From Thermoplasmata archaeon (GTDB lineage Archaea > Thermoplasmatota > Thermoplasmata > RBG-16-68-12), in contig DATESQ010000009.1 in NCBI GenBank assembly GCA_035283985.1, positions 953-64,952 of the forward strand: a stretch of 64,000 nucleotides of DNA, given 5' to 3'. The position numbers and the translations under genes are program-made. The notes under the pieces were generated by a model that had not been told where the DNA came from, did no database searches, and was given only the letters and a program-made list of their open reading frames with translations. Shown in pieces: positions 4,301 through 59,629 of the stretch. The first letter of the stretch is position 1. Each line of letters opens with the position of its first letter.

Positions 4301-6177
4301 TCATGAAGGTCTTCGACGCGGCGACACAGCAGGTCAAACAGGGATCTCGGAGAAGGGGTGCTAACATGGGAATTCTGCGGGTGGACCACCCGGACATCCT
4401 TGAGTTCATCACGTGCAAGGACGACATCCGCGAGATCACGAACTTCAACATCTCGGTCGCGGTCACGGACGCCTTCATGGAGGCTGTGCGGACGTCGGAG
4501 AAGTACGACCTCGTAAGCCCGCGTACGGGCAAGGTCGTGAGCCAGCTCGACGCCCGCGAGGTGTTCGACAAGATTGCGCACCAGGCCTGGAAGAACGGGG
4601 AGCCCGGGCTCTTCTTCATCGATGAGACGAACCGGCGGCAACCGACGCCCCACATCGGCATGATGGAGGCGACAAATCCCTGCGGCGAACAACCTTTGTT
4701 ACAATACGAATCTTGCAACCTTGGGTCGATTGACTTAGAACGGCACATGGCCCGCGGCTCGGGCGGTCGCTGGGACGTCGACTGGAAGAAGCTCGAGCGG
4801 ACCGTGCGGACCGCGGCGCGCCTCCTCGACAACGTGATCGACATGAACGCGTACCCCGTGAAGCAGATCGAGGAGATGACGATGGCGACCCGCAAGATCG
4901 GACTCGGCGTGATGGGCTTCGCCCGGATGCTGTTCATGCTCGAGGTGGCGTACGACGCCGAAGAGGGCGTCGAGTGGGGCCGGCGGGTGATGAAGTTCAT
5001 CAAGGACGTCGGCTACGACGAGAGCGCGAAGCTCGCGGCGGTCCGGGGCCCGTATCCCGCGTGGACCGGTTCCCGCCACTGGGAGCAGGGCGTCAAGGTC
5101 CGGAACTCGTACGTGACGACGGTCGCGCCGACGGGTACGCTGTCGATGATCGCGGACACGTCCGGCGGTTGCGAGCCCGAGTTCTCCCTGATCTGGTTCA
5201 AGCGCGTGATGGAGGGGGAGCAGCTTCCATATTCCCTCGCGTACTTCGAGGATGTCGCGAAGCGAGAAGGCTTCTGGACGCCGGACCTCGTGCACCGGGT
5301 CCTCGAGAACGGCGGCCGCGCCCGCGGGATTAGCGGGGTCCCGCAGAAGTGGCAGCGCGTCTTCGCGGTCTCGTTCGACGTCGCGGCCGAGTGGCACGTC
5401 CGGATGCAGGCCGCGTTCCAGGATAGTTCTGACAGCGCGGTAAGCAAGACGATTAACCTGCCCCGCGAGGCGACGGTCGAGGATGTGAAGAAGGCCTACC
5501 TCCTCGCGCATGAGTTGAAGTGCAAGGGGATCACGGTGTACCGCGACGGGAGCCGGGAGGACCAGGTCTTGAACGTCGGCGTCTCGGGGGCGGAGACGGT
5601 AAAGCCCGCCGAGGCGAAGCCGGTCGAGGTCCCAACGATCACGCGGCCCCGCCGGCGGCCCGCCGTGATCACGGGACGAACGCAGAAGATCCTCACGGGC
5701 TACGGCCCGCTCTACGTGACCGTCAACGAGGACGACAAGGGCCTTTTCGAGCTGTTCGCACAGATCGGCCGCGGCGGCGGGTACACTGCGAGCTTCACGG
5801 AGGGCCTCGCCCGACTCGTCTCACTGTGCCTGCGGTCCGGCGTGCCCGTCGACGAGATCATCGACCAGCTCGAGGGGATCCGGAGCCCGCGACTCGCACT
5901 CGACCACGGGGAGCGGATCTTCTCGATTCCGGACGCGATTGCGAAGGCGATCAAGCGGCACATCGGAATGCAGCGGACGGGAACGGTCCCGCCGATCGAC
6001 TCGTTCGACGCGGAGGTCGGCAGCGTTCCCGTCGACGACGAAATCGAGAAGGAGGCGCAGCAGGCGCCGGACCTCGTGAAACGCGGGCTCAACCCGGAGT
6101 GCCCGGAGTGCGGGCGCACCCTCATCCTCGAAGAGGGCTGCGCGAAGTGCCGGTATTGCGGGTACTCGGAGTGCTGA
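1333..6177 (+). CDS. nrdJ: Class II (adenosylcobalamin-type, monomeric) ribonucleotide reductase precursor containing two inteins
   Basis: The 1614-aa ORF has exteins matching archaeal/Thermoplasma-Pyrococcus-type NrdJ (PNSPTLMNAGLELQQLSA..., EATNPCGEQPLLQYESCNLGS), including the C-terminal Cys-rich zinc ribbon CPECGRTLILEEGCAKCRYCGYSEC. Two Cys...HN-bounded insertions interrupt the catalytic core. The mature protein would be about 785 aa. Confidence 0.9.
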   Translation: MLKLEPTLDLIAGEPDPRLSENALRVLERRYLRKDETGKVTETPRELFWRVAWNLAQADRTYGATEEQVLEAAKSFYRLMANLEFLPNSPTLMNAGLELQQLSACFAAGTAVSTIAGPKPVEEIVVGDLVLTHRGRYRRVVATMRREAPVRRVKIHRLPAMFATEEHPFLTPEGWVRAGDLVGRHVRVGSAAEVVTRTEIEFEAEVDGDLVYRRKTGRSEASVARHRVLGARSLQVKPVKAHVHLDEEIGWFFGMYLAEGEINPTLRAARFTLGLHEQATADRLASILRNRFALDSEITHVVDAPTSWISVRVQSKIFCEWLAGEFDRGFASKRLPDWIHETPAEFRTGLLQGVADGDGTHVNVNQTRITLSNEGLVRQLFELGVGLGHAPAMKPEYMPANATARPWSITLGGKPMYVRDGAYLVESVESVEGVTTVYNLEVEEDNTYVANGVVVHNCFVLPVEDSLAGIFQTLKESALIHQSGGGCVAGDSHVFTTFCGVERLETLYERIRTLGAPEEVRQGHRVMDISSLGVRTFAVNPATGRFDTKQVTHLWSWDVPAENQYRIRCSDGTEVTTSEWHPFLVMTEDGIVERRADALQPGDVLLGPNRSVRDAWPFTSYLEQEGFVLDEPLAWLIGFFLGDGSLDWFQNRKVGYRALRLRLFDGRPENIRFAREVLAAHGILVTPQQDRRGLWSLTTTDAGFVPRLARLAQSGPGPKVALTMPEWVAKSPLSVVAAFLGGLIDSDGYVSLDRRRLEFSTVCPELANRLVSLLSALGFNPSIRAKAPGPRAKLVEYRLHMADAKRTPELVSMVRAWVHDPFRGHRLDLLTERVAHNTHTRIPLPFTLLEKLLRAAGVETRGTAIHKSAVAVGDVQLWLHRAKWGDGIGEDKLRQLVQALRSVTSEQSSPLLELLEHLAGGWTAVEAVERPAEPKAFYDLTVADFNNYLAGGGLGKMAVVHNTGFSFSRLRPKNDFVRSTMGVASGPVSFMKVFDAATQQVKQGSRRRGANMGILRVDHPDILEFITCKDDIREITNFNISVAVTDAFMEAVRTSEKYDLVSPRTGKVVSQLDAREVFDKIAHQAWKNGEPGLFFIDETNRRQPTPHIGMMEATNPCGEQPLLQYESCNLGSIDLERHMARGSGGRWDVDWKKLERTVRTAARLLDNVIDMNAYPVKQIEEMTMATRKIGLGVMGFARMLFMLEVAYDAEEGVEWGRRVMKFIKDVGYDESAKLAAVRGPYPAWTGSRHWEQGVKVRNSYVTTVAPTGTLSMIADTSGGCEPEFSLIWFKRVMEGEQLPYSLAYFEDVAKREGFWTPDLVHRVLENGGRARGISGVPQKWQRVFAVSFDVAAEWHVRMQAAFQDSSDSAVSKTINLPREATVEDVKKAYLLAHELKCKGITVYRDGSREDQVLNVGVSGAETVKPAEAKPVEVPTITRPRRRPAVITGRTQKILTGYGPLYVTVNEDDKGLFELFAQIGRGGGYTASFTEGLARLVSLCLRSGVPVDEIIDQLEGIRSPRLALDHGERIFSIPDAIAKAIKRHIGMQRTGTVPPIDSFDAEVGSVPVDDEIEKEAQQAPDLVKRGLNPECPECGRTLILEEGCAKCRYCGYSEC
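1645..2703 (+). mobile_element. Intein 1 in nrdJ (353 aa) with a LAGLIDADG homing-endonuclease domain
   Basis: It begins with Cys immediately after QQLSA (CFAAGTAV...) and ends ...NGVVVHN followed by Cys (CFVLPVEDS). It contains two LAGLIDADG-like motifs (WFFGMYLAEGE and LLQGVADGDG). The boundaries were computed from the ORF frame. Confidence 0.8.
2791..4218 (+). mobile_element. Intein 2 in nrdJ (476 aa) with a LAGLIDADG homing-endonuclease domain
   Basis: It begins with Cys after HQSGGG (CVAGDSHVF...) and ends ...GKMAVVHN followed by Thr (TGFSFSRLRP). Its LAGLIDADG motifs are LIGFFLGDGSL and FLGGLIDSDGYV. Only a 29-aa extein separates it from intein 1. Confidence 0.8.
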
Positions 6178-7471: not shown

Positions 7472-8485
7472 ATGACACGACCCGTTGTCCTGTTCGCGAT
7501 CGACATGGACCCTGAGCGTCGAAGGATTGCCGAGGAACGCCTGACAGGGCGCGCGGAAATCCTGATTCGCCGGGACCTCTCGGACGAGGACCTTTCGCGC
7601 CGGGCGCCGGACGTCGATGTCCTCGTGACGGGCGGCTTCCCGCGGGACATCCCCGCAGAGGTGTGGCCGACGATGGCGCGCCTTCGGCTCCTCCAGACCG
7701 TCGCGGCGGGCGTCGACCACCTGCCGTACGACCGGATCCCGCCGGCCGTAACGATTTGCAGCAATGCCGGCGCATACCGCGTCTCGATTTCGGAGCATTC
7801 GATGGCGCTTCTCCTCGCCGCAGCGAAGAACCTCATCATCCACACCGACGCAATCCACCATGGCCGTTTCCCGCAGGACGTGATGGGCATCTCCGTTCGG
7901 GGGAAGACCCTCGGGATCATCGGGCTCGGCGGGATCGGCGGCGAGGCCGCCCGCCTCGCGTCGGGCCTCGGGATGCGCGTGATTGGGGTCAACCGTCGCG
8001 GGACGACGGATGCGCCCGTCGCGTGGTGCGGCACGCTCACGAATCTCGATCGCCTTCTCCAAGAGAGCGATTTCGTCCTCCTCTCCATCCCGCTCACGAA
8101 GGAAACCATGGGCCTCATGGGCGCGCGGGAGCTTCGGCTCATGAAGCCGAATGCGATCCTGGTGAACATAGCGCGAGGAAAGCTGATCCGGGAACGGGAC
8201 CTGTTCCAGCATCTAAAGGCGAACCCGGGCTTCCAAGCGGCACTCGATGTGTGGTGGCGCTACCCGCGGGGGGAGGGATTTCCCTTCACCGAGCGGTTTC
8301 ACGAACTGCCGAACGTCGTGATGACGCCCCACGTCGCGTGGGCGATCCCAGAACAGGCGCGGTGGTCCCTCGAGGGTGCGCTCGACAACGTCGTGCGATT
8401 CCTCTCCGGCGAGTCGCTCCGTAACGTCGTCGACCGCGCGGAATATGTGTTCGAGAGCGAGCCCGCCGAGGATCGACCCGTCTAG
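7472..8485 (+). CDS. D-isomer-specific 2-hydroxyacid dehydrogenase (PGDH/glyoxylate reductase family)
   Basis: The NAD-binding motif GKTLGIIGLGGIGGEAARLASGLGMRVIG and the catalytic-region motif LVNIARGKLI are present. The ATG at 7472 follows a GGAGG ribosome-binding site. Confidence 0.8.
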   Translation: MTRPVVLFAIDMDPERRRIAEERLTGRAEILIRRDLSDEDLSRRAPDVDVLVTGGFPRDIPAEVWPTMARLRLLQTVAAGVDHLPYDRIPPAVTICSNAGAYRVSISEHSMALLLAAAKNLIIHTDAIHHGRFPQDVMGISVRGKTLGIIGLGGIGGEAARLASGLGMRVIGVNRRGTTDAPVAWCGTLTNLDRLLQESDFVLLSIPLTKETMGLMGARELRLMKPNAILVNIARGKLIRERDLFQHLKANPGFQAALDVWWRYPRGEGFPFTERFHELPNVVMTPHVAWAIPEQARWSLEGALDNVVRFLSGESLRNVVDRAEYVFESEPAEDRPV

Positions 8486-47474: not shown

Positions 47475-49454
47475 CTAGCGCGGCTCGCCCTCGAGCTCAC
47501 CCTCGTCCCACTCCGCCTCGGGCTCGCCGGGTGGCTCCATGACGACGACCTTCGCGGGCTTCCACGTCTCGTACGGCGGCTCGGCCTCCGGGCGGCGGCG
47601 CCACCGAAGAAACGCGACGACCACGATGGCGCCAAGGACGACGGCCGCCGCGGCGATCACGAGCGCGACGTTCGATGGGGGCGGCACGGGTCGCAGGACG
47701 ATCGTTCCGAGCGCACCCTGCTCGGGTGCGATCACGACCTCCTGCCTGTACACCTCGAATCCGTCGCGCGACACGGAGAGCGCGTACGCCCCCTGCTCGA
47801 CCGACCCGATCGCAAAGTCGCCCGTTCCGTTCGTGAGGACGACGCGCCCCCCGAGTTGGACGTGCGCCCCGCCCAAGGGATCCCCGGACGTGTCTTCGAC
47901 CCGCCCCGACACGGTGCCTCGCCATGGCTCCGTGACAAATCGGATCTGCTTCGACTGGAACATCTCGTTCCCGCTGAGGTCCCTCGAAACCGCGCGGACG
48001 AATAGGACGTACGCGGTCTTGTACCCCATCGGGGTGAGAGCCGCGAACTCCACGGTCGCATCGTTCGGCCAGCGGAAGTCCGCGAGCACGACGTCCTCCG
48101 TGATCCCGATTCCGCTCCGCACGGACGCCCGGTCCATCGGCTCGCTGAAGATGATCGAGAACCGCTGGGTCCGGCTCACGTTCTCCTGGCCGTCGAACGG
48201 CGTCGTCCACAGGATCCGGGGCGGACCCGTGTCGCTCTGTTCCGCGGTCGTGAACCGCCAGGTCTCGTTCGCCCCGCCGTTCAGCAGGTTGCCCGTCTCG
48301 TCCTGCGCGACTGTTGCGTCGAGACTTGCCGTGTACCGCGTCCCGAACGCGAGGGTGCGGGTCGGCCGGAATGAGAACGCGTCGAGTCCTGACGCCCAGC
48401 TCGCGGTCCCGTTCGCGACCGTGTAGACGGCCGTGCCGTCCGTGTACGAAAAGCCCTGCTCGACGGAGGCCCGGTCCAACCGCTCCGAGAACACGACGTG
48501 GATCCACGTCGTCGGATTCACGTCGGTCGCATCCGCCGCGGGGGTCGTGCCCGCAACGGTCGGCGGTGTCGTATCCTCGGCCTCGGTTGTGAACTGGATG
48601 CGTAGATCGTCGACGGGGGACCCTTGGGACACCCCGTTCCCGTTTCCATCGAGCCCGCGTCCCTCGCGGTCCGTGGTCCCGCTTCCGGGGATCGTGAGGT
48701 TGTACGTCGTGGCGTTCTTCAGGTTCGGATCCGGATTGAAGAGGACCGTGTCGTCGGGGAACCGGGCCCCGCTCCACGAGACCGTGCCGTTCGCCCTCGT
48801 GAGCGTCGGCGCTCCGTCGCCCGCGAGCCCGAACCCGTTCTCCACGCTGCTGCGGACCATCGCCTTGCTAAAGACGACCCGGATCGACGTGGAGATCGAC
48901 ACATTCTCGGCCCCGGCGACCGGTTCGACCTGGAGCACTCGCGGCGGCGTCGTGTCCGCGATGATCGAAAACGACCACGAATATCCGTCCCCCCCGATTC
49001 CGTCCTGGTTCCCATCGAGGAGGTTCGCCTCGAAGTCCCTCGCCACGCCGCCGTCGATGTACACCGTGACGGTCCCGCCCGTCGCGAACTCGAGGCGGGG
49101 ATCGAACCGCATCGTATCGTCTGGGGCGGAGCCATTCGTCCACTGCGTCGTGCCGTCCGCGACCGTGTAGAGCGAGTTTCCGTCACTGTAACTCAGCGCG
49201 CCCTCGACGGACGCCGGATCCATGCGCGCGGTGAACCGGATATCGATCACGGTACTGGGTCCGACGACGCTTCCGGGGGCGGGCGATGTCGAGAGGACCC
49301 GCGGAGGCACGAGGGAGGGTGGGGCCGTCCAGCGGACCATCCCGTCGGTACGATTTGCAGGGAATTCTGTCGGGCCGCCAGCGAGTTCCATCGTGGGAGC
49401 AAGGACGAGGGCGAGTAGCGGGAGGATTGCAAGCAAGGGCCACAGTCGAGCCAT
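47475..49454 (-). CDS. Large cell-surface protein: signal peptide, repeated Ig-like domains, a carboxypeptidase-regulatory-like domain, a C-terminal TM anchor and an acidic tail
   Basis: The signal is MARLWPLLAILPLLALVLA. Ig-like/Big repeats are rich in Thr and Gly. The CarboxypepD_reg-like segment is GTVSGRVEDTSGDPLGGAHVQLGG. The TM helix is ALVIAAAAVVLGAIVVVAFL, followed by RWRRR and an acidic end. Confidence 0.65.
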   Translation of the reverse strand: MARLWPLLAILPLLALVLAPTMELAGGPTEFPANRTDGMVRWTAPPSLVPPRVLSTSPAPGSVVGPSTVIDIRFTARMDPASVEGALSYSDGNSLYTVADGTTQWTNGSAPDDTMRFDPRLEFATGGTVTVYIDGGVARDFEANLLDGNQDGIGGDGYSWSFSIIADTTPPRVLQVEPVAGAENVSISTSIRVVFSKAMVRSSVENGFGLAGDGAPTLTRANGTVSWSGARFPDDTVLFNPDPNLKNATTYNLTIPGSGTTDREGRGLDGNGNGVSQGSPVDDLRIQFTTEAEDTTPPTVAGTTPAADATDVNPTTWIHVVFSERLDRASVEQGFSYTDGTAVYTVANGTASWASGLDAFSFRPTRTLAFGTRYTASLDATVAQDETGNLLNGGANETWRFTTAEQSDTGPPRILWTTPFDGQENVSRTQRFSIIFSEPMDRASVRSGIGITEDVVLADFRWPNDATVEFAALTPMGYKTAYVLFVRAVSRDLSGNEMFQSKQIRFVTEPWRGTVSGRVEDTSGDPLGGAHVQLGGRVVLTNGTGDFAIGSVEQGAYALSVSRDGFEVYRQEVVIAPEQGALGTIVLRPVPPPSNVALVIAAAAVVLGAIVVVAFLRWRRRPEAEPPYETWKPAKVVVMEPPGEPEAEWDEGELEGEPR

Positions 49455-49612
49455 GGCGCACCGATAGGGTGCAAAACATTGTGGAGGGCGTATAAACGGT
49501 TATTTGTGCCTCCTTCAAATTCTGAGGACGTTTGGGGCCGATTCGGCGGTCCACGACGAAACCTCTTTTAGCACCTGCCGCTATACTCCGCGATTTCTCA
49601 CAGGGACACACA

Positions 49613-52600
49613 ATGATACGCAAGGTAACAAGACAGTACGGCCGGGAGGAGGTCCTTGCGCTCCTCCAGCCGCTCGTCCGGGATTGGTTCGCGTCGAAGT
49701 TTTCCGGCCTCACGGAGCCCCAGGCGTACGCCGTCCCCCTCATCCACGAGCGGAAGAACGTCCTCGTCTCGTCCCCGACAGGCTCCGGGAAGACCCTCAC
49801 TGCGTTCCTCACGATCATCAACGAACTGTATTCGATGCAGCTCCGCGGGGAGCTCGAGGACAAGATTTACGCGGTGTACATCTCACCCCTGAAGGCCCTC
49901 GCGAACGACATCAACCGGAACCTCGAGCAGCCCCTCCAGGAGATGACGGCCCTCGCGCAGGACAAGGGCCTCCCGCCCCCGGAGATTCGCGTCGCAGTGC
50001 GGTCCGGCGACACCTCTGCTCAGGAGCGGCAGCGACAGGCCCGGAAGCCCCCCCACATCTTCATCACGACGCCGGAGTCGTTGACGCTCGTCCTCTCCGC
50101 GCCGAAGTTCCGGGAGAGCTTCACGACCGCCAGGTGGGTCATCGTCGACGAGATCCACGAAGTGTGCGGGAACAAGCGGGGCGCCCTCCTCGCGTTGTCC
50201 GTCGAGCGGCTCCAAGACCACGTCGGGCCTGAGCTCACCCGCGTCGGCCTCTCGGCGACGATCGCCCCGATCGACGAGGTCGCGAAGTACCTCGTGGGCT
50301 ATGCGAAGGGAAAGCTCCGAGAGATTCACGTCGTCGAGGTCGAGAGCCGGAAGTCCCTCGACATCGCCGTCGTGTGTCCCGTCCGGGACCTCGCGGAGTA
50401 TGCACTGGAGGAGGCGAACGCGCGGATGTACGATCTCCTCTCGAGCCTCATCGAGCAGCGCCGCACGACGCTGATCTTCACGAACACTCGGAGCGGGACG
50501 GAGCACGTCGCGTTCAAGCTCAAGGAGCGGGGGATCGAGAACCTCGAGGCCCACCACGGGAGCCTGTCGAAGGAAACCCGGATTGAGGTCGAGGAGAAGC
50601 TGAAGCGCGGCGACCTGAAGGTCGTCGTGTCGTCGACGTCCCTCGAGCTCGGGATCGACATCGGGTACATCGACCTCGTGTGCCAGATTGGCTCCCCGAA
50701 GTCGATTGCGAAAGCGCTTCAGCGGATTGGCCGCGCGGGGCACAACTACGGGGACACCTCCGTCGGACGGCTCATCGTGTTCGAGCCATGGGACCTCGTC
50801 GAGTGCGCGACCCTCGTGAAGAACGCGTACGAGAACCGGATCGATCGCGTCGACATCCTGCGGAACCCGCTCGACGTCCTCGCGCAGGCGATCATCGGGA
50901 TGTCCCTCGAGAAGCGGTGGGACGTCGACGAGGCGTTCGAGCTCGTCCGCCGGACGTACACGTATCACGAGCTCCCGAAGAAGGACTTCCACAGCCTCCT
51001 CGAGTACCTCTCGAGCCGGAACCCGGACGTGAAGGTTTTCGCGAAGATCTGGTACGACGAGGACGAGCAGCGGTTCGGCAAGAAACGCGGGACGCGGCTC
51101 ATCTATTTCACAAACGTCGGCACGATCCCCGAGGAGGGCTCGTACCGCGTGTTCTCCGAGCGCGGTTCGCCGCTCGGCGAGCTGAGCGAGAAGTTCGTCG
51201 AGTACCTGAAGCCCGGCGACATCTTCGTCCTCGGCGGGCGCACGCACCAGTTCGTCCGCGCGCGGGGGATGACCGTGTACGTGAAGGACGCCGCGGGCCG
51301 GCGGCCGACGGTGCCCTCTTGGACGGGCGAAATGCTCCCGCGGTCCTTCGACCTCTCCGTCGCGGTCGGCGAGTTTCGGCGGATCCTCGCAGAGAAGATC
51401 GAGGAGCTCGGCGAGGAGGCCGCGGTCGAGTGGCTCCTCGAGAGCTTCCGACTCGATGAGGGCTCCGCGCGGAGCCTCGTGAGCTACATGCAGGAGCAGC
51501 GGGCCGTGCTGCCGGACCTCCCGACGGATCGCCAGGTCGTCGTCGAGGGGTACGTGGACGAGAAGGGGAACCGGAACCTCATCTTCCACTACCCATTCGG
51601 GCGGCGGGTCAACGACGCCCTGTCTCGCGCGTTCGCCCACGCGATTACGGAGAAGTACCACACGAACGTCCGCGTGGGCGTCACGGACGACAACTTCATG
51701 CTCACGATCCCGAAGCGCGTCGACCTCGAGGGCGTCGAGGCGCTCGTGACGTCGAAGGACCTCGAGGACCGCCTGCGGCGGGCGGTGCGGAACACGGAGC
51801 TGTTCAAGCAGCGCTTCCGTCACTGCGCGACCCGGGCGTTCATGATCCTCCGGAGCTACAAGGGCCGCGAGGTCTCGATCGGCCGCCAGCAGCTCCGGTC
51901 CCAGCGCGTCCTCGACTGGCTCCACGAGATCGAGGACTTCCCCGTTGTGAAGGAGACCTACCAGGAGATCCTGAACGAGGTGATGGACGTCCGCCAAGCG
52001 AAGCACGTCCTCGAGCGGATCGAGGCGGGTGAGATCACGGTGAAGGTCACGGGCTTCTCGAACCTCCCGTCGCCGTTCGCGCACAATGCGATTCTGGCGG
52101 GGATCAGCGACCTCGTCCTCATGGAGGACCGGTCCGCGATGCTTCGCGAGCTTCACAAGCAGATCCTGAAGAGGGTCGTCCCGGTAAGCGAGCTCGAGGC
52201 CGCGCAGTTCACGGAGGAGGAGGTCCGCGCGTACTTCAAGCGAAAGCTGCCGCGGGTCGAGCGGAAGGAGGACATCCTCCACGCCCTCGAGCGCGTCGGC
52301 GCCCTCAATCTCCTCCAGCAGAAGGGTCGCTCCATCTTCGAGTTCTCCGACGTGCCGTTCGAGGAGCTCCGGACGTGGGCCTCGGACTTAATGGAGGCGG
52401 GCACGGTCCAGAGCGTCTGGACCCCGCAGGGGATCGTGTGGGCCCTCACGGACGAGGTCCCGCTGTACGCGGCGGTGTTCGCGCAGGCCGTGCGGCGGAA
52501 GCCGGAGGACGAGGCCGTCGTGAAGGCTCTCGACAGCGGCCCGGCGACCCTCAAGGCCCTTTCGAAGAAGCTCGGCTGGGGCAAGGAGGAGACGAACGAG

Positions 52601-55027
52601 ATCCTTCGGAAGCTCGAGCGCGCGTACCTCGTCCACCGCCGCGGCATCGAGGAGACCGTGTTCGCGCTCCGCCCACTGAAGAAGGAAAGCTTCGAGACCG
52701 CCCTCGATCGCCTCCTCACGCGCCACCTCGACGTCCACGGCCCGACGATCGCGCACGGCCTCGCGTTCGTCCTCGATCTCGAAGAGGACCTCGTGAAGGA
52801 GGCGCTCCGCGACCTCGAGCAGGAGGGGGTCGTCGCGTCCGGGAGTTTCGTCGTCGGCGGGGAGTACCAGTACCTGCTCGTGCACGACCTCCAGAAGCTC
52901 CGGCGGAAGGGCGACACCAGGGAGGTTTTCGAGGAAGGCCAGGTGAAGGCGTTCCTCCTGAGCAAGCAGTTCTCCGGACTCCCGACGATCGAGGACTACT
53001 TCAACCTCTTCGGCGAGGCGGGATGGGCCCTCGACATCGCGAACCACGTCGCGTCGTTCGACTACGCGGACTGGCTGCGACGGCGGGAGAAGGGCGACGT
53101 CCTCGAGGGCCGCTTCCTGAACGGCCGCCTCCGGTACGTCCGCGCAAAGGACGCGCCTCTCTTCCTATCTGCGTTCCCACGCTCGGACCTTGAGCCCCTC
53201 GCTGCGAAAGTCCATGAGATCGTAAAGGCGCATCCGGATGGAATCGACTTCAGCGGGATTGCGGCCGCCCTGCGCGGGGAGGAGCGGGACCGCGTGAAGG
53301 AAGCCTTCGAGTCCCTCGATTACGACTGCTACGTAATCCGGAAATTCCAGGGCGAGGGGTGGACGACGCGGAATGTGTACGTCCCGTTCGACGTTGGGGA
53401 CGACCTCGTCGAGGACGCGGTGGAGACGGTCGTCCTGAACTTCCTCCGGGCCTGCGGGCCCGCGCCGCTCTCCGGGATCCGCGAGTACGCACGGTTCCAC
53501 TGGGACGAGATCGAGTCGTTGATGGACGGCCTCGAGGAAGGGGGCAAGGTGAAACGGATTCTCGTCTCCGGAAAGGGCGAAGGGGAGATGTTCCTCCTCG
53601 CGGACGAAGTCGACGCGCTTCGGAAAACCCACGCGGAGGACGCGAAAGACCGCGTTCGGATCCTCTCGATCCTGGACCCGTGGACGCAGCCGCTGTGGGC
53701 GCAGGTCGCCGCGCGGTGGGGCGAGGGATGGTTCTATCCGATTGTGAAGGACGGGGACCTCGTCGGGATGGCGGAGATCTGGGAGATGAGCGGGTGCATC
53801 GAGATCCGGGAGCTCGACCTGAATGGCCCCGACCTACTCCCGGCCGTCCTCGAGGCCGTGGACCGGTTCATGGAGTTCTTCCGGGCCCGCGGGTTCGATA
53901 TCGTGCGGATCACGCGCGCGCTCGGGAAGGAGGTACCGGAGCTCGACAACGTGCAGGCGTTCCTCGAGGCCGGATACGTGCGCCTCGGCGACTTCCTCGC
54001 AAAAGGGAATCTCGTGCCGCGGGATTTCGAGAAGTCCCAGCTCCTCGCGTACGTGTTCCGCCGCCAGGGGCTCGACCCGGCGCGTCCGTTCAAGGACCCC
54101 ATCGACGTGTCGAACGCGCTCCTCGGCGTTCGCTCGGACCTCGCCGCTCGCCTCAGAGCGCACGAATTCGTTCCCCTCGAGCGCCTCCACCGACGGGGCC
54201 TCCTCGCGCGGGGCCTCGGAATCCCGAGCACGTGGACGTACTGCACGGAGGCGGACCTCATGCTGTTCAAGCGCGCGAAGGACATCCGCCTCACGAAGGA
54301 GATGCGCGCGGTCCTCGAGGTCGTGAAGAATCATGAGCCGATCACGCGGGGCCGGATTCTCGCCCTCGCCCCGTTCGGCTACACGGCCGCCTCCCGGGCC
54401 CTCAAGAAGCTCTACGACGGCCTCCACGTCACGCGGGACCCGAACAACCGGTACCGTTCCGTTCGCGACCTTCGGATTCCCGTCGAAGAGGCCCGTCGGG
54501 CCGTTCTCCGGAGAATCGCAGAGAGCCTCGGCGTCTTCTCCGCGGAAGCGCTCGGTGCGTACACGCGGTTCGCGTACAACATGGCGGAGGTCCGCCGCCT
54601 CCTCCGGGAGTTCGAGAAGGAAGGGTGGCTCGTGAAGGGCTTCTTCGCGCGGGGGGAGCGGACCGTATACTGGATGCTGAAGGAGGGCCTCGACGCGATC
54701 GACGATCTCTCGTTTGACCGCCCGTTCGTCCTCACGCCCCAGGACAACCTGATTCTGTTCCTCCGGGAGGCGATCGTGGAGCGGTGGCATATGGGGATGT
54801 GCTACGTGATCTTCGACGGAACGCAGATGGTCGCGGCGTTCAAGGCGAAGCGCCGGAAGACCTCCCTCGCCGTCACGGAGTACGAGGGCGACCCCGCCGC
54901 GCGCCGGATCCTCGAGGAGTTCGAGGACCAGAACGAGATCGAGGTCGGGGAGCACGTCGAGCGGATCAGCGACGCGGAGGTCATGGAGTGGTACTCGAAG
55001 ATGTACGGCCGGGGGACGATGAAGTGA
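49613..55027 (+). CDS. lhr: Lhr-family superfamily-2 helicase (1804 aa) with a long C-terminal extension containing several winged-helix-like modules
   Basis: The helicase motifs are VLVSSPTGSGKT (I), DEIHE (II), SAT (III), the motif VI region QRIGRAGH, and Lhr-core features. The ATG at 49613 lies about 28 nt downstream of a TATA-like gctatact, suggesting a leaderless transcript. Confidence 0.85.
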   Translation: MIRKVTRQYGREEVLALLQPLVRDWFASKFSGLTEPQAYAVPLIHERKNVLVSSPTGSGKTLTAFLTIINELYSMQLRGELEDKIYAVYISPLKALANDINRNLEQPLQEMTALAQDKGLPPPEIRVAVRSGDTSAQERQRQARKPPHIFITTPESLTLVLSAPKFRESFTTARWVIVDEIHEVCGNKRGALLALSVERLQDHVGPELTRVGLSATIAPIDEVAKYLVGYAKGKLREIHVVEVESRKSLDIAVVCPVRDLAEYALEEANARMYDLLSSLIEQRRTTLIFTNTRSGTEHVAFKLKERGIENLEAHHGSLSKETRIEVEEKLKRGDLKVVVSSTSLELGIDIGYIDLVCQIGSPKSIAKALQRIGRAGHNYGDTSVGRLIVFEPWDLVECATLVKNAYENRIDRVDILRNPLDVLAQAIIGMSLEKRWDVDEAFELVRRTYTYHELPKKDFHSLLEYLSSRNPDVKVFAKIWYDEDEQRFGKKRGTRLIYFTNVGTIPEEGSYRVFSERGSPLGELSEKFVEYLKPGDIFVLGGRTHQFVRARGMTVYVKDAAGRRPTVPSWTGEMLPRSFDLSVAVGEFRRILAEKIEELGEEAAVEWLLESFRLDEGSARSLVSYMQEQRAVLPDLPTDRQVVVEGYVDEKGNRNLIFHYPFGRRVNDALSRAFAHAITEKYHTNVRVGVTDDNFMLTIPKRVDLEGVEALVTSKDLEDRLRRAVRNTELFKQRFRHCATRAFMILRSYKGREVSIGRQQLRSQRVLDWLHEIEDFPVVKETYQEILNEVMDVRQAKHVLERIEAGEITVKVTGFSNLPSPFAHNAILAGISDLVLMEDRSAMLRELHKQILKRVVPVSELEAAQFTEEEVRAYFKRKLPRVERKEDILHALERVGALNLLQQKGRSIFEFSDVPFEELRTWASDLMEAGTVQSVWTPQGIVWALTDEVPLYAAVFAQAVRRKPEDEAVVKALDSGPATLKALSKKLGWGKEETNEILRKLERAYLVHRRGIEETVFALRPLKKESFETALDRLLTRHLDVHGPTIAHGLAFVLDLEEDLVKEALRDLEQEGVVASGSFVVGGEYQYLLVHDLQKLRRKGDTREVFEEGQVKAFLLSKQFSGLPTIEDYFNLFGEAGWALDIANHVASFDYADWLRRREKGDVLEGRFLNGRLRYVRAKDAPLFLSAFPRSDLEPLAAKVHEIVKAHPDGIDFSGIAAALRGEERDRVKEAFESLDYDCYVIRKFQGEGWTTRNVYVPFDVGDDLVEDAVETVVLNFLRACGPAPLSGIREYARFHWDEIESLMDGLEEGGKVKRILVSGKGEGEMFLLADEVDALRKTHAEDAKDRVRILSILDPWTQPLWAQVAARWGEGWFYPIVKDGDLVGMAEIWEMSGCIEIRELDLNGPDLLPAVLEAVDRFMEFFRARGFDIVRITRALGKEVPELDNVQAFLEAGYVRLGDFLAKGNLVPRDFEKSQLLAYVFRRQGLDPARPFKDPIDVSNALLGVRSDLAARLRAHEFVPLERLHRRGLLARGLGIPSTWTYCTEADLMLFKRAKDIRLTKEMRAVLEVVKNHEPITRGRILALAPFGYTAASRALKKLYDGLHVTRDPNNRYRSVRDLRIPVEEARRAVLRRIAESLGVFSAEALGAYTRFAYNMAEVRRLLREFEKEGWLVKGFFARGERTVYWMLKEGLDAIDDLSFDRPFVLTPQDNLILFLREAIVERWHMGMCYVIFDGTQMVAAFKAKRRKTSLAVTEYEGDPAARRILEEFEDQNEIEVGEHVERISDAEVMEWYSKMYGRGTMK

Positions 55028-55085
55028 GGGCCGCGACGAAAACCTCGCAAACGTTTATGGCGACACCTTGGGATTCGCGGCCGGC

Positions 55086-56297
55086 ATGAACCCCGCGAAG
55101 GTGTTCGCCGTTCTCGAGAAGTCCCGCGACGAGATGGTGCGAACCCTTGCGGACCTGTGCCGGATCCCCGCGATCGGTCCCGCCTCGAACGGCGAGGGTG
55201 AGACGAAGAAGGCGGAGATGGTCGAGTCCCTCCTGAATGGCTTCGGCACCAAGGTCGAGCGGCACGACGCGCGGGACGACCGCGTGCCCTCCGGGATCCG
55301 CCCGAACCTCGTCGTGAAGACCGGCAAGGGCTCGCCCCGCCTGTGGCTCCTCACACACCTCGACGTCGTCCCGCCCGGGGATCGCGCAGGATGGCGGTGC
55401 GACCCCTTCGACCCACGCGTGTTCAACGGCAGGCTCTACGGTCGCGGCGTCGAGGACAACGGCCAGGCCCTCGTCGCGACGTCGTACGCTCTGAAGGCGG
55501 TGCTCGACGTCGCGGGCGAGCCGTCCCGCCCCGTCGGGCTGTGCTACGTCTCCGACGAGGAGACGGGGAACGAGAAGGGCGTCCGGCACGTGATTGCGAA
55601 GGGCCTCTTCGCGAAGAAGGACCTCATTCTCGCGCCGGACCGGGGCGTCTCCGACGGCTCCGAGATCGAGATCAAGGAGAAGAACCTCCTGTGGTTCCGT
55701 GTGACGGTCCGCGGGACGCAGGGCCACGCGAGCCGGCCGGAGGTCGCCATCAACGCGCACCGCGCGGGCGCATACCTCGTCACGCTCATCGACGCTCGCC
55801 TCCACAAGAAATTCCGGGCCGCGGATCCACTGTTCCGACCCGCAGAGTCGACGTTCGAGCCGACGAAGCGGGAGGCGAACGTCCCGAATGTGAACACGAT
55901 CCCGGGCGAGGACGTGTTTTACTTCGACTGCCGCGTCCTCCCGGTGTACAAGAACAAAGCGGTTTTCCAGGAGGTCGAGGCCGCCCTCCAAGAGACGGAG
56001 AACCGGTTCGGCGTGAAGGCGGAGATTGAGGTGATCCAGGACGAGTCGAGCCCTCCGACGCCCGAGGCCGCGCCGATCGTCGGACTCCTGAAGACGGCGA
56101 TCGGGACCGCGCGCGGCCTCAAGGCGAGGGTCGTCGGAATCGGCGGCGGGACCGTCGCTGCACACTTCCGAAAGGCCGGGTACCCCGCGGCGGTGTGGCA
56201 GACGACGGACCAGACGGGTCACGCAGTCGACGAATACGTGTCGATCGCGAATCTCGTCGCGGACGCGAAGGTGTTCGCGGCCCTCATGCTTGCGTAG
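55086..56297 (+). CDS. M20-family metallopeptidase/deacylase (ArgE/DapE-like)
   Basis: The metal-ligand motifs are LLTHLDVVPPG, GRGVEDNGQALV and SDEETG. Confidence 0.75.
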   Translation: MNPAKVFAVLEKSRDEMVRTLADLCRIPAIGPASNGEGETKKAEMVESLLNGFGTKVERHDARDDRVPSGIRPNLVVKTGKGSPRLWLLTHLDVVPPGDRAGWRCDPFDPRVFNGRLYGRGVEDNGQALVATSYALKAVLDVAGEPSRPVGLCYVSDEETGNEKGVRHVIAKGLFAKKDLILAPDRGVSDGSEIEIKEKNLLWFRVTVRGTQGHASRPEVAINAHRAGAYLVTLIDARLHKKFRAADPLFRPAESTFEPTKREANVPNVNTIPGEDVFYFDCRVLPVYKNKAVFQEVEAALQETENRFGVKAEIEVIQDESSPPTPEAAPIVGLLKTAIGTARGLKARVVGIGGGTVAAHFRKAGYPAAVWQTTDQTGHAVDEYVSIANLVADAKVFAALMLA

Positions 56298-58626
56298 AGG
56301 ACCCCGGGATTTCCGTGTCCGGCCGTGGGGCCGGCGCGGGCCCCGTGTCCGGCACGAAGCAGTGGGTCTTCCGCCCCGCGCGCTCGACGCGGATCACGCG
56401 GCGCTCGCCCAGGATATTGATGTGGTAGTTCACCGTCGGTGGCGTGAGGCCGAGCCGGTTCGCGATCTCCTTCTGTGTGATGCCCGGCACCGTGCGGATG
56501 AGATCGACGATCGTTCGCTGAATCATATTCGGCGCGAAGTAGTCGTCGTCGGGGATCCGCATGTTCATCGGATAGAACCGCCGGTAGAGGCCGAACCGCT
56601 TCGACTTGAGGAACCGCTCCCGTTCGAGCGTCTTCAGATGGTGCGCGAGGGAGCCGTTCGTCAGGTTCAGCGCAACCTTGATCGCGTTGTAGTGCTCCCC
56701 GGGGTTCGCGAGGACGTACCCATAGATCTGGCCTCGGACGAAGTGGTCGAGGACCCGCTCCCGCCTAATTTTCGTGTACATTGGGAGGAAGATCGCGACG
56801 AGGCCGTACTTGACGTTCTCGCTCGCGAGGGCACCGAACCCGAGCGCGGCGAGGATCGTCGTCACCGCGGCGCCGACGTAGGCACCGATCGGGGGCACGG
56901 GCGCGACCACGCCGACGCGGATCGCGAAGATCTGCTCGGCGACGCCGCCGTGGGAATCCGACGCCCGGAGGCGGACGAGGTGGGCGCCGGTCTGCGACCC
57001 GGAGGGCCGCCACTCCACGAGCCCTGTCGTTGTGTCGATCGTCATTCCGCTCGGCGCCTGCTCGAGGGTGAAGGTGTGGAACTCCACGAGCGGGTATGGG
57101 TCCTCGATCATCGCTTGGTACTCGTACATTCCGTCCGCGACGATCTCCGTAAGGGGTGTGCTCGCGAACATCGGCCGCGCGTTCACGGTGACCGTGAACG
57201 TGTTGCCCATGACGGGGGCGCGGCCCGCCGCGCCATCGGAGGCCGCGACGAGGAACCGCGTCGTCCCGTACCATCCCAGCGTCGCCTCGAAGTCGAGGTG
57301 GTACCCGTCCTCCGCGATCGAGGCCCGCACGAGGCCCGGCTTCTCCTGGTACACGATCGAGAACTTCAGGAGGCCGTGGTCGTCACTGAAGTAGTTCCGG
57401 AGGTCCACGAGACCCGTGCCGAGCGTGCCCTCCGTGAAGACGATGTCCGACGGGATCGTGCGGAGGAGCGCGGGCGGGAGGTCGTCCTGCTCGAACACGA
57501 GGAGGGAACCCGGGACGCGGGCGAGCAGCTCCGAGAAGGGCCTCCCGCTGAACGGCCCGATTGCGAGGGTCGCGTCCACGCCAACGGTATCGAGCGCGAG
57601 CCGGAACGCGGGCGTGGTCTCGAAGCCGCCGACGATTCGCTGGAGGAATACCGCCACCGTCGGACCAAACTCCGCGATCGCGAGGTCGACGCGGCCGTCG
57701 TCGTTGAGGTCCCCGAGCGCGAATCTCTCCGTGAGCCCTCCCGTGAACGTCGTGGACGTCTCGAACGCGCCATCGCGTTGCAGATACAGCGTCACGGTCC
57801 CGGAGGCCTCCGTCGGATGCCGTGCCGCGAACACAAGGTCCATCGCCCCGTCGCCATCGAGATCGGTGAACCGGACCGCCACGGGGCCGCCGAGGCTGTC
57901 CGGGACCATCCGCACGGGTGGGCTCGGGAGCTGCGTCGTGTCGACCTTGTACCGGTAAATTCGAATCTCCCGCGGGTGCACGAGGATCAGGTCCGATCGG
58001 CCGTCGCCGAATACGTCCGCCGTCATGACGTCGAGGAACGTCGATGTCCCCGCCACCGTGAGGTCCGGCTTCGAGGCCCACACGCCGGCCGCAGATCGAC
58101 TCTGATACCAGAGGTGCAACCCCTCATCCGTGAGGGTCGCGAGGTCCGGCAGCGAGTCGGCCCCGAAGTCCGCGATCGCGACCGCGGTCACACCCGGCAC
58201 GGCGATCTCCGCGACCCGGATGTCGAACTCGCCCCAGTCATTGTAGAGGATCGCCACCTGGTCGGAACGGACGACGATGAGGTCCGCGTCCCCGTCGACA
58301 TCGATGTCTTCGAGGGCAATCTTCCGTGCGCCCTCCGTCGCGATGGAAACACTCGGCGCGGCGGGCAGCCCCGTCGCACCCTGCGTGAATACCACCACGG
58401 ACCCGGCGGCCTCATCGAGGACCCCGATGTCAAGGACCGCATCCCCGTTCACGTCTCCGACCGCCATCCCGCCGAGTCCCGCGGCGGCGATGCTCCGGTC
58501 ATGGATCTTGTGCGTGGGAAACGCGGCGGCGGGCGTGGGGAGTGAGAGAATCAGGACGAACGCGACGAGCAACGCTACCGCTGAGGCCGTTAGGAGTCGT
58601 GCTTGCGCGGTCGTCCGAGGTTTCAT
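56284..58626 (-). CDS. Membrane protein with an extracellular FG-GAP/VCBS-repeat beta-propeller, a TM helix and two cytoplasmic winged-helix (wHTH) domains
   Basis: The N-terminal signal/anchor is MKPRTTAQARLLTASAVALLVAFVLIL, with GGGGAG upstream. Repeated FG-GAP-like blades follow (DxNGDGxxD, FGxD, DLDGDG). The TM helix is GAYVGAAVTTILAALGFGALA. wHTH 1 is GYVLANPGEHYNAIKVALNLTNGSLAHHLKTLERERFL. wHTH 2 is GITQKEIANRLGLTPPTVNYHINILGERRVIRVER. Confidence 0.65.
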   Translation of the reverse strand: MKPRTTAQARLLTASAVALLVAFVLILSLPTPAAAFPTHKIHDRSIAAAGLGGMAVGDVNGDAVLDIGVLDEAAGSVVVFTQGATGLPAAPSVSIATEGARKIALEDIDVDGDADLIVVRSDQVAILYNDWGEFDIRVAEIAVPGVTAVAIADFGADSLPDLATLTDEGLHLWYQSRSAAGVWASKPDLTVAGTSTFLDVMTADVFGDGRSDLILVHPREIRIYRYKVDTTQLPSPPVRMVPDSLGGPVAVRFTDLDGDGAMDLVFAARHPTEASGTVTLYLQRDGAFETSTTFTGGLTERFALGDLNDDGRVDLAIAEFGPTVAVFLQRIVGGFETTPAFRLALDTVGVDATLAIGPFSGRPFSELLARVPGSLLVFEQDDLPPALLRTIPSDIVFTEGTLGTGLVDLRNYFSDDHGLLKFSIVYQEKPGLVRASIAEDGYHLDFEATLGWYGTTRFLVAASDGAAGRAPVMGNTFTVTVNARPMFASTPLTEIVADGMYEYQAMIEDPYPLVEFHTFTLEQAPSGMTIDTTTGLVEWRPSGSQTGAHLVRLRASDSHGGVAEQIFAIRVGVVAPVPPIGAYVGAAVTTILAALGFGALASENVKYGLVAIFLPMYTKIRRERVLDHFVRGQIYGYVLANPGEHYNAIKVALNLTNGSLAHHLKTLERERFLKSKRFGLYRRFYPMNMRIPDDDYFAPNMIQRTIVDLIRTVPGITQKEIANRLGLTPPTVNYHINILGERRVIRVERAGRKTHCFVPDTGPAPAPRPDTEIPGSSTQA

Positions 58627-58840
58627 TCGCTCCCCTCGGGGGTCCGATATCCTATCGCGTCGGAATTGATAAATACAGCCTGGTACGGTTTTTGAACTAT
58701 CCGGTCGCCGCGGCCCCGCACTTCGACCAGACCTCCGGGGATCCAGGAGCGCACGCCGCAGATCGGACACTCGACCCCGAAAGCTCCCTGCATCGGCCGA
58801 CCGATCTTGCAGGTCTGGCTTACAGGGACTCGCCCCAATC

Positions 58841-59629
58841 TTGATGATGCGAAGCGGACATCGGCCGGGGGTGTCGAGCCACGAGGCGCGCCTTGCGATT
58901 TCCTTCCTTGTCGGCGTCGGCCCCGCGGCCGCGCTGATGTGGGTCTCCCTCCGCCGGTTCGACTATCCCATGGCCCCGAAGGCGCTTTTCGACGACCGGC
59001 GCGTCTTCCTCGCGTTCGCGGTCGGGATGGGCTTCGGCGTGTTCGCGAGCGTGCTCACGATTTTTCTCTCCGTGATGGTCGCGGCCGCTGGGGGCTTTGG
59101 CGGGACCCTTTCCCTCTTCGTCGTCGCCCTCTTCGAGGTGAGCTTCATGCTCGTGTACCTGAACCGGCCCGGGTACCGCGGCCGCTTCGAAACGACGTTC
59201 TACGGCACCTCGCTCGGCCTCGGCGCCGCGGCGACCCTCACGATGGCGTCCGCGTTCTCCCTGAATCCGACCCTTGCGGGAAGCCCCGAGCTCGCGGCCC
59301 TCCTCGCCCTGTTCGCGGTCTCGATGGCCCTCATCCTCGGGTCGACGGGGTCGCTCGTTGGCTTCGGAACCGCGCGGCAGCAGGCGATTCGCTACTTCGC
59401 CCGCGCGTACCTCGTGCGCCTCTCGCATCTCTTGATCCTGTTCTTCTTCTTCACAACCCGGGAAGTCCCAGTCGCCGCGGCGTCCCTCGTCGCGTCCCTC
59501 GCGTTCGCGGCGGTCGTGTACGTGTTCGTGTACCGTGAAATCCTCCCGGAGACGCTCCCGCGGGAGATCCGGCGGGAGCTGCGGCGGTGGCCTCGCGAGA
59601 CGAAACGCCCCGCTAAGGAGTCGGAGTGA
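58841..59629 (+). CDS. Hypothetical multi-pass membrane protein
   Basis: It has 6-7 predicted TM helices. No family motifs were recognised. Confidence 0.45.
   Translation: MMMRSGHRPGVSSHEARLAISFLVGVGPAAALMWVSLRRFDYPMAPKALFDDRRVFLAFAVGMGFGVFASVLTIFLSVMVAAAGGFGGTLSLFVVALFEVSFMLVYLNRPGYRGRFETTFYGTSLGLGAAATLTMASAFSLNPTLAGSPELAALLALFAVSMALILGSTGSLVGFGTARQQAIRYFARAYLVRLSHLLILFFFFTTREVPVAAASLVASLAFAAVVYVFVYREILPETLPREIRRELRRWPRETKRPAKESE

Follow-up and report, generated by a model that had tools for sequence, protein, structure and literature searches.

In this study, we analyzed a 64-kb stretch of DNA from an uncultured Thermoplasmata archaeon (the window), which encodes on its minus strand a 780-amino-acid (aa) protein combining a large FG-GAP β-propeller ectodomain, a single transmembrane (TM) helix and two C-terminal winged helix-turn-helix (wHTH) domains. 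Our main new result is a bipartite sequence element, which lies directly 5' of the TATA box of the genes coding for this protein and other members of its family. Taking the element together with the domain architecture, we propose, with a probability of roughly 0.6, that the protein is a type-I, single-pass transmembrane one-component transcription regulator, with the element upstream of its own TATA box as a candidate operator; in that event it probably autoregulates its own gene. An initial annotation of this DNA had already proposed a membrane-tethered transcription regulator of the one-component type that senses an extracellular ligand or contact, and this proposal now draws support from the topology, the matches of the wHTH domains to Pfam models and the candidate operator at the gene's own promoter. 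The functional steps beyond the architecture are those that we infer from sequence comparisons.

The element takes the consensus form box1-N4-YGTAC(C/A)A and is found at an equal position in orthologous and paralogous promoters. Alignment of the upstream regions of the orthologs recovers it as ATTCGA-N4-(C/T)G(T/C)ACC, placed 4–7 bases before the TATA box; the corresponding string ATTCGA-N6-TACC is present as one copy in each of ten loci of FG-GAP orthologs, always in the promoter of the ortholog itself, and only once elsewhere in all the loci examined. The short paralogues of the family show the version (T/A)ACAAA-N4-CGTACAAAT-N5-TATA at a fixed distance of 43–44 nucleotides (nt) from their start codons, and the same layout recurs in giant forms, as ATTAGA-N4-CGTACC (locus L028), CTTCGA-N4-CGCACC (L075) and GTTCAA-N4-TGCACA (L037). 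A strict test demanding both the core and a TATA box is passed by 38 of 69 family promoters. When a 19-nt position weight matrix (PWM) was run over 639 kb of the loci, it yielded 100 matches against 8 in shuffled sequence; family promoters account for 44 of these matches and promoters of the immediately downstream gene for 36, while several of the remaining 20 are further family promoters or a third promoter of the same cluster. In the window, the family PWM gives exactly one strong match (58680–58698, score 20.0), and a PWM constructed from long-form sites of other genomes only recovers the same single strong match (20.2), with the next-best scores at 14.1 and below, i.e., at the chance level. 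The binding of the element by the family members would be the simplest explanation of this distribution.

Two other readings of the upstream sequence were considered and set aside. The element might have been a general promoter feature of the lineage; however, the other TATA-bearing promoters of the window do not carry it, barring one weak copy, and the 639 kb of flanks show its concentration at the family genes and their downstream neighbors. Further, the palindromic operator suggested by the initial annotation did not materialize: between 58600 and 58860 we found only short, imperfect or widely spaced inverted repeats, and this search was abandoned in favor of the conserved, asymmetric bipartite element. 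The weak copy, ATTTGAAGGAGGCACAAA, followed by TAACCG and TTTATACG, occupies 49503–49520 on the minus strand, 66 nt 5' of the gene at 47475–49454 (minus strand), which encodes a 659-aa secreted protein with Big_5 and CarboxypepD_reg domains. Its PWM score of 9.6 is at the chance level when taken by itself, but its placement relative to a TATA box is correct; this gene may be a second target of the regulator.

The loci of the short paralogues offer a more elaborate arrangement. Here, the element also precedes genes for a SBP_bac_5 solute-binding protein and an ABC permease, neither of which is homologous to the family: one copy is placed before the regulator gene, two copies 33 nt apart before the SBP_bac_5 gene, and one before the permease gene. 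For example, in L044 the sites are at 3534–3553, 4635–4687 and 7701–7719, with the same positions in L043, L046, L047, L049, L052 and L054. This layout points to a compact regulon, in which the short form would control its own gene and the adjacent transporter. Comparative genomics thus yields a concrete candidate operator and, for the short paralogues, candidate targets in the form of a peptide ABC transporter.

A further clue comes from the two halves of the element and the two wHTH domains (hereinafter wHTH1 and wHTH2). Box2 and the recognition helix of wHTH1 are nearly constant, while box1 and the recognition helix of wHTH2 vary. Box1 reads TT[CA][GA]A in members whose wHTH2 recognition helix conforms to ..(T/V)(V/I).YH(I/V/M), and ACAAA in those with a helix of the SQQ..SYNL type; the respective helices are LTPPTVNYHINIL in the protein from the window (on the TTCAA/TTCGA side) versus VSQQTVSYNLRHL (on the ACAAA side). 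As a sign of family members binding the element, this co-variation is suggestive, not proof.

The reality of the gene and the position of its start bear directly on the promoter assignment. The third-position G+C fraction of the open reading frame (ORF) is 0.86 in a window of 65% G+C, which establishes it as a real gene. With the full-length protein as the query, we recovered a protein of 96% identity along with eight full-length orthologs; these, the ORF list and the codon-position G+C bear out the earlier call of a coding region at 56284–58626. The open frame on the minus strand extends beyond the coding sequence, across 56284–58770. Nevertheless, the ATG at 58626 is the supported start, because a TATA-like box and a GGGGAG stretch are found upstream of it and the conserved promoter element falls inside the longer frame. 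The TATA-like box of the window aligns with TATATATG and TATTTATG in the orthologous promoters. As a side observation, the 5' leaders of several orthologs (L001, L008–L010, L016 and L017) contain GC-rich, hairpin-like stretches, e.g., gccgggcgcgccgcccggc, about 20–60 nt 5' of the starts; these sit between the TATA box and the start codon, and the leader in the window is shorter.

Turning to the protein itself (Table 1), the hydropathy profile shows two membrane-associated segments, at aa 11–29 and about aa 578–602, in keeping with the N-terminal signal or anchor and the single TM helix originally described; the end of the signal peptide is retained in the orthologs as AxA|(F/Y)P. The full-length AlphaFold2 model, built with 21 orthologs in the alignment, has a mean predicted local distance difference test (pLDDT) score of 83.4. 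It renders aa 44–378 as an all-β structure with a pLDDT of about 90 in the propeller, and the corresponding sequence is matched above threshold by the Pfam models FG-GAP_3 (85.3 bits versus a cut-off of 26.9, in six stretches) and FG-GAP (34.3 bits). The repeats and the seven-bladed model together identify the domain as an FG-GAP or integrin-α-type propeller. In Foldseek searches, the best fold matches were ITFG2, an FG-GAP propeller protein (target TM-score 0.64), and cadherin/Ig ectodomains; the propeller also matched the EPTP domain of LGI1 (0.75). The FG-GAP ectodomain of the initial annotation thus stands, though not its extent of about 600 aa: the propeller accounts for about 340 aa, and the other approximately 180 aa form two Ig/cadherin-like domains. 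The first of these has no Pfam match of its own, whereas the second is recognized as He_PIG at aa 517–571 (34.2 bits versus a cut-off of 24). Likewise, of the multiple DxDGDG-type calcium loops claimed for the ectodomain, three fit the strict D-x-[DN]-x-[DN]-G pattern (aa 107, 255 and 306), with about six calcium-loop-like motifs typical of FG-GAP repeats in the ortholog consensus.

On the cytoplasmic side, both C-terminal wHTH segments noted in the initial annotation exceed the curated Pfam cut-offs: aa 631–688 match HTH_HVO_0163_N (PF24266) at 59.2 bits versus a gathering cut-off of 31, and aa 703–746 match HTH_24 (PF13412, a wHTH of the Lrp-AsnC type) at 44.5 bits versus 21.9. Structure prediction agrees, both in the full-length model (helix at aa 603–640, wHTH1 at aa 646–686, wHTH2 at aa 701–757) and in a separate AlphaFold2 model of the last 208 aa built with 89 homologs (pLDDT 87.9, rising above 95 in both wHTH domains). 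The nearest solved relative of wHTH1 is 5duk_A, a "putative DNA binding protein" (E = 2.8e-8 with a profile, 4e-4 with the single sequence), while the profile matches of wHTH2 among PDB sequences are ArsR, AdcR and CzrA chains; taken singly, the wHTH domains superpose on ArsR/MarR repressors with a root-mean-square deviation (rmsd) of about 1 Å. In terms of classification, the protein remains below the curated threshold for the ArsR/SmtB metalloregulators (NCBIfam NF033788; 37 bits versus 55), with only sub-threshold ArsR-type matches in NCBIfam as a whole; the wHTH fold is ArsR-like, yet outside the ArsR metalloregulator subfamily by this measure. The thresholds of the MarR family are also missed (PF01047, 23.3 bits versus 24.6; MarR_2, 26.7 versus 27). 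Among the 113 homologs found with the C-terminal 208 aa as the query, the few that carry source annotations are labeled as wHTH or MarR regulators, and they stem from Thermoplasmata-type metagenome-assembled genomes (MAGs); the label "MarR family" is approximate, and our analysis corrects it for these tandem-wHTH membrane proteins. The suggestion that the protein might be an anti-sigma-like sensor does not hold up. Archaea use TBP and TFB instead of sigma factors, the host is an archaeon, and no anti-sigma domain was detected with Pfam, the sub-threshold match to Sigma70_r4 (13.4 versus 24.1 bits) reflecting generic HTH similarity.

The TM helix and wHTH1 are connected by a conserved juxtamembrane helix, which displays the family-invariant residues E603, P615 and Y617 and a VLDHFVRG motif, and which in both AlphaFold2 models is continuous with helix 1 of wHTH1 (aa 603–640). 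An 11-residue hydrophobic stretch, YGLVAIFLPMY, which follows the TM helix, is modeled as the start of this long helix and is too short to span the membrane. The motif of the region, (S/T)E.GKY.L....PLY.(K/R)....VLDH (56737–56820, minus strand), places an invariant Glu at the membrane edge, followed by an invariant Pro-x-Tyr, and it could act as a hinge in coupling, make contact with lipids or be the target of cleavage.

The topology is supported as N-out, C-in, type I and single-pass. The ectodomain has an isoelectric point (pI) of 4.4, as against 10.35 for the cytoplasmic part, with its basic wings in the wHTH domains. In 87 family members, the stretch of 15 residues that follows the membrane segment contains on average 4.0 Lys and Arg residues versus 0.8 in the outer flank, as expected from the positive-inside rule. 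This charge distribution and the conserved signal peptide imply that the wHTH pair is cytoplasmic; the opposite placement, outside the cell, which the initial annotation had named as the finding that would speak against its proposal, is not what these rules predict.

While the architecture was initially thought to be an unusual combination, our searches indicate otherwise. An exhaustive phmmer search over 1.84 billion representatives (of 50% identity clusters) returned 540 representatives at E ≤ 1e-30, a number that rises to 2577 at E ≤ 1e-10. Lengths among the listed entries range from 173 to 2185 aa, with the module at the C-terminus in nearly all of the full-length ones. Hence, at least 540 clusters share the module of a TM helix and tandem wHTH domains, and all the sampled members come from uncultured Thermoplasmata. 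The 113 homologs mentioned above are mostly proteins of about 330–350 aa with an Ig-like (Big_1) ectodomain. A genome scan with one genome per species yielded 119 loci, of which the 80 listed are all in Thermoplasmata-type MAGs, labeled as uncultured Thermoplasmata, Methanomassiliicoccales or "Methanobacteriota"; many of the scanned genomes encode 2–4 paralogues, commonly a long FG-GAP form alongside a short Ig form. No paralogues were found by tblastn inside the window with either the N- or the C-terminal half. The eight full-length orthologs retain the same layout of FG-GAP, He_PIG, TM and tandem wHTH domains down to 40% identity, and conservation of the FG-GAP version extends over about 20 genomes. 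The family searches and these orthologs thus indicate that the architecture is common in the lineage and that its FG-GAP version is a conserved orthologous group.

Other ectodomains found on the same module include NEW3 with CARDB, a β-helix with Glucodextran_B and Big, and WD40 with PKD. Thus, the family keeps a constant module of TM helix, juxtamembrane helix and tandem wHTH domains, while its ectodomains (Ig, FG-GAP, WD40, β-helix and CARDB) are interchangeable. Of the 24 columns that are invariant when 89 members are aligned, 20 fall in the juxtamembrane helix and wHTH1 and the other 4 in wHTH2, with the invariant pattern reading (S/T)E.GKY.L....PLY.(K/R)....VLDHFVRGQIYGY...NPG.HYN...L...NG.L..HL..LE.

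Based on the above, we advance the following plausible mechanism of action. The FG-GAP propeller, raised on its two-domain Ig-like stalk, would bind an extracellular ligand or surface, and the signal would be relayed to both wHTH domains by the TM helix and, following it, the rigid and invariant helix of the juxtamembrane region. A single polypeptide might then read the asymmetric operator with both of these domains, the nearly invariant wHTH1 on the constant box2, YGTAC[C/A], and the variable wHTH2 on the variable box1, which is TTCAA here; the centers of the two boxes are about one helical turn apart. Since the element abuts the region of the TFB recognition element (BRE) and the TATA box, such binding would help or hinder the recruitment of TFB and TBP, resulting in autoregulation of the protein's own gene. 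A small regulon of envelope genes would probably also come under its control. Most likely, the protein stays anchored in the membrane during its action, which is the default by analogy with ArnR and the bacterial transmembrane transcription regulators (TTRs).

Several previously described systems provide a framework for these proposals. By definition, TTRs are one-component regulators for which both a TM region and a DNA-binding domain are predicted (Demey et al. 2023, PMC10269533). The 780-aa protein fits this operational definition, its single chain combining at least one predicted TM region with predicted DNA-binding domains, which are placed in the cytoplasm by rule-based prediction; DNA binding and regulation are predicted. 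It also shares with TTRs the proposed logic of an extracytoplasmic sensor wired to a DNA-binding output at the membrane (PMC10269533). In that census, the DNA-binding domains include HTH_24 and HTH_20, the tables include combinations of WD40, PD40 and Kelch β-propellers with HTH domains, and archaea average about four TTRs per genome; an FG-GAP entry was not found in the part of the supplementary tables covered (PMC10269533). In contrast to the TTRs described therein, the present family features a C-terminal tandem wHTH preceded by an ectodomain with a signal peptide, i.e., a type-I arrangement. The characterized archaeal counterparts are ArnR and ArnR1 of Sulfolobus acidocaldarius, which are membrane-bound transcription activators (PMC6396743). 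Like the proposed regulator, ArnR is an archaeal membrane-anchored HTH protein with cis elements just 5' of the BRE and TATA box and acts at the membrane; unlike it, ArnR has an N-terminal HTH, cytoplasmic HAMP-like and sensor domains and two C-terminal TM helices, and the ArnR boxes are inverted repeats, TCGAC-N5-GTCGA (PMC6396743), as against the asymmetric bipartite element. The present protein instead has a large extracellular sensor, one TM helix and a C-terminal tandem wHTH. It lacks the architecture of ArnR, and no sequence relationship was seen between it and ArnR or ArnR1. Our literature searches on membrane-bound wHTH regulators in archaea or Thermoplasmata retrieved the TTR census and the ArnR papers, but nothing on the tandem-wHTH family.

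Among bacterial regulators, the transmembrane activators of the ToxR/CadC type (PMC5430869) are likewise single-pass proteins with sensing and DNA binding in one chain that act at the membrane, but theirs is an N-terminal cytoplasmic wHTH of the OmpR type (Trans_reg_C) with a C-terminal periplasmic sensor. The 780-aa protein is not ToxR/CadC-like, since it has the opposite polarity and shows no Pfam match to Trans_reg_C. The PF24266 match, at the score given above, relates wHTH1 to the HVO_0163-type ArsR-like regulators; its solved relative, 5duk_A, differs in being a 77-residue chain, the size of a wHTH domain. The ectodomain resembles those of integrin α and ITFG proteins in its seven-bladed FG-GAP propeller with DxDxDG calcium-loop-like motifs, Ig-like stalk and single TM helix. 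This is a likeness in fold, not function: integrins have a short tail for cytoskeletal adaptors where this protein has a cytoplasmic DNA-binding module, and no β-subunit partner is evident here. As for the proposed mode of binding to box1-N4-box2, the plasmid initiators RepE, RepA and π on their iterons might offer an analogy, albeit one devoid of any sequence or functional relationship: these act as monomers, reading an asymmetric site of about 19 bp with two winged-helix (wH) domains that contact neighboring major grooves.

These comparisons bear on a wider issue, as archaeal signal transduction is poorly understood and only a handful of membrane-bound regulators, such as ArnR and ArnR1, have been studied. 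The family would act like a plug-and-play receptor system, with many extracellular domains feeding one conserved DNA-binding output across at least 540 sequence clusters. The family bears on the membrane-tethered control of a TBP/TFB promoter, the reading of an asymmetric site by tandem wH domains and sensing by FG-GAP propellers in archaea. More tentatively, and with rather less confidence than in the regulator proposal itself, we suggest that this is an undescribed modular class of archaeal receptor-transcription factors, with swappable ectodomains on an invariant output, in which a single chain would act on an asymmetric, BRE-overlapping operator, with wHTH1 reading a constant half-site and wHTH2 providing the specificity of each paralogue. 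If this is true, Thermoplasmata would possess a direct, integrin-like outside-in route, by which surface contact or a ligand governs the promoters of genes for the envelope and for uptake.

A number of points weigh against the proposal of a membrane-tethered regulator acting at the element. The element could be bound by a different regulator, and the window offers no second strong target. The co-variation between box1 and wHTH2 amounts essentially to two deep clades with three or four agreeing outliers and is thus phylogenetically confounded. The near invariance of wHTH1 among paralogues whose sensors differ could equally reflect binding to a protein partner that is constant. The best fold matches of the whole module are tandem-wH scaffolds, namely TFIIIC, RPC34, ScpB and ESCRT-II, albeit with low TM-scores of 0.25–0.30. 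The topology is judged by hydropathy and charge rules, and the literature found on HVO_0163 is one proteomics mention as an "ArsR-type" protein, which increased after hypochlorite stress.

Some of these points converge on an unlikely alternative, namely a surface adhesin or a protein of the envelope, whose tandem wH domains form an anchor for protein–protein contacts or nucleoid tethering in the manner of ScpB or ESCRT-II, with the element serving another regulator of envelope genes. It would account for the scaffold matches and for the location of the 20 invariant columns in wHTH1 and the adjacent helix despite the differing ectodomains. It would also accord with the ectodomains being of kinds that typify adhesins or surface proteins (FG-GAP, cadherin-like, CARDB, Big and WD40) and with the element-bearing genes, i.e., those for the family, the solute-binding protein and possibly the Big_5 protein, all coding for envelope proteins. 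However, the scaffold matches come without a sequence signal: ScpB and ESCRT-II are retrieved by Foldseek at E values of 2e-4 to 4e-4, but with a TM-score of 0.26–0.30 and an rmsd of 10–13 Å, and the profile search of PDB found no sequence-level match to either, whereas the sequence matches are to DNA-binding HTH domains of the ArsR, MarR and Lrp types. On the grounds of the low TM-scores and the missing sequence support, the ESCRT-II/ScpB-like reading of the tandem wH was retained as a rival of low probability. Moreover, the module is very basic (pI 10.35), with basic wings, and the variable half of the element tracks the recognition helix of wHTH2, which would not be expected were the element the site of an unrelated regulator. 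The same co-variation speaks against a quite improbable variant, wherein the protein binds DNA elsewhere and the element belongs to a shared regulator of envelope genes or a specialized TFB/TBP pair. The abutment of the element on the BRE and TATA box, its constant core, GTAC[C/A]A, in all paralogues and the weak copy 5' of the unrelated Big_5 surface-protein gene are as would be anticipated for such a shared factor. Yet the other recognizable promoters of the window and most other genes in the 639 kb of flanks do not have the element, and in the short-form loci it singles out exactly the gene of the regulator and those of the neighboring transporter, a classic local arrangement of a regulator and its targets.

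A different kind of alternative, to which we assign the lowest likelihood of those considered, accepts the role in transcription but holds that the membrane keeps the factor inactive until regulated proteolysis at the invariant (S/T)E.GKY...PLY segment frees a soluble tandem-wHTH fragment to act. The invariant E603, P615 and Y617 lie between the TM helix and wHTH1 with no obvious structural need for them, a helix-breaking Pro is placed in a short hydrophobic stretch, and a polytopic membrane protein is a conserved neighbor. This neighbor, however, has neither a protease signature nor a family match, even at E ≤ 10; in the relatives a further gene intervenes between the two, and the entire region consists of syntenic housekeeping DNA. 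The continuous helix modeled by AlphaFold2 into wHTH1 fits rigid coupling as well as it does a cleavage site, and tethered regulators that act without being released are well documented (PMC10269533, PMC6396743).

Table 1. Features of the gene for the 780-aa protein, its promoter and its product; positions are those of the window
Feature	Position	Strand	Basis and remarks
Coding sequence of the 780-aa FG-GAP/tandem-wHTH membrane protein	56284..58626	(-)	Stop codon included; ORF list and translation
Shine-Dalgarno-like GGGGAG	58630..58635	(-)	Directly 5' of the ATG; putative, from the sequence
TATA-like box, TATTTATC	58668..58675	(-)	About 43–50 nt 5' of the ATG; putative function
Candidate operator, AGTTCAAAAACCGTACCAG	58680..58698	(-)	Box1 TTCAA 58692–58696, box2 CGTACC 58682–58687; ends 4 nt 5' of the TATA box
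Signal peptide, aa 1–35	58522..58626	(-)	Hydropathy peak aa 11–29 with three basic residues before it; predicted cleavage, likely PAAA / FP
Extracellular FG-GAP β-propeller, aa ~40–380, seven blades	57487..58509	(-)	Pfam FG-GAP_3 and FG-GAP; AlphaFold2; Foldseek
First Ig/cadherin-like β-sandwich of the stalk, aa ~392–485	57172..57453	(-)	AlphaFold2 strands aa 395–482; cadherin/Ig fold matches
Second Ig-like domain, He_PIG/Big_9 type, aa ~490–574	56905..57159	(-)	AlphaFold2 strands aa 494–572; Pfam He_PIG
Single TM helix, aa ~578–602	56821..56895	(-)	Hydropathy; AlphaFold2 helix aa 580–601
Conserved juxtamembrane helix, aa 603–630	56737..56820	(-)	Invariant columns in alignments of 89 and 21 sequences
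wHTH1, PF24266 type, aa 631–688	56563..56736	(-)	Pfam; pLDDT >95 in the C-terminal model; nearly invariant family-wide
wHTH2, HTH_24/ArsR/MarR-like, aa 700–758	56353..56529	(-)	Pfam, PDB profile matches, Foldseek; variable recognition helix LTPPTVNYHINIL
Disordered Pro/Thr/Ser-rich C-terminal tail, aa 759–780	56287..56352	(-)	pLDDT <50 for aa 761–780; not conserved

Finally, the gene neighborhood says little on function, as the neighbors are mostly housekeeping genes. In the relatives, the syntenic region comprises genes for an Asx-tRNA synthetase, an acetyltransferase, a pyruvoyl arginine decarboxylase, a small zinc-ribbon protein and a 250-aa membrane protein, followed by the ortholog itself and an Lhr-type helicase. 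The conserved membrane protein is represented in the window by a polytopic protein of 262 aa (58841–59629, plus strand), which is encoded divergently to the gene and has a homolog of similar size as a conserved neighbor in the relatives. It has no match in Pfam or NCBIfam even at E ≤ 10 and no protease signature, and it was rejected as a partner protease or sensor for the reasons given above. In the relatives, a gene for a protein with double-zinc-ribbon (DZR) and TPR domains is directly upstream of the ortholog; it is missing in the window. DZR proteins adjoin both long and short paralogues (e.g., L001 4067–5902, plus strand; L044 2430–3404, minus strand), with the TPR repeats present in the long-form loci. 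The helicase gene, coding for about 1830 aa (49532–55027, plus strand), adjoins the gene in all the relatives examined, where its product displays DEAD, Helicase_C, WHD_Lhr, DEAD_assoc and AlkZ-like domains. In the window, a gene for an M20 peptidase (55068–56297, plus strand) is inserted between the gene for the 780-aa protein and the helicase gene; it is convergent with the former, their 3' ends overlapping by 14 nt (56284–56297), and is not at this position in the relatives.

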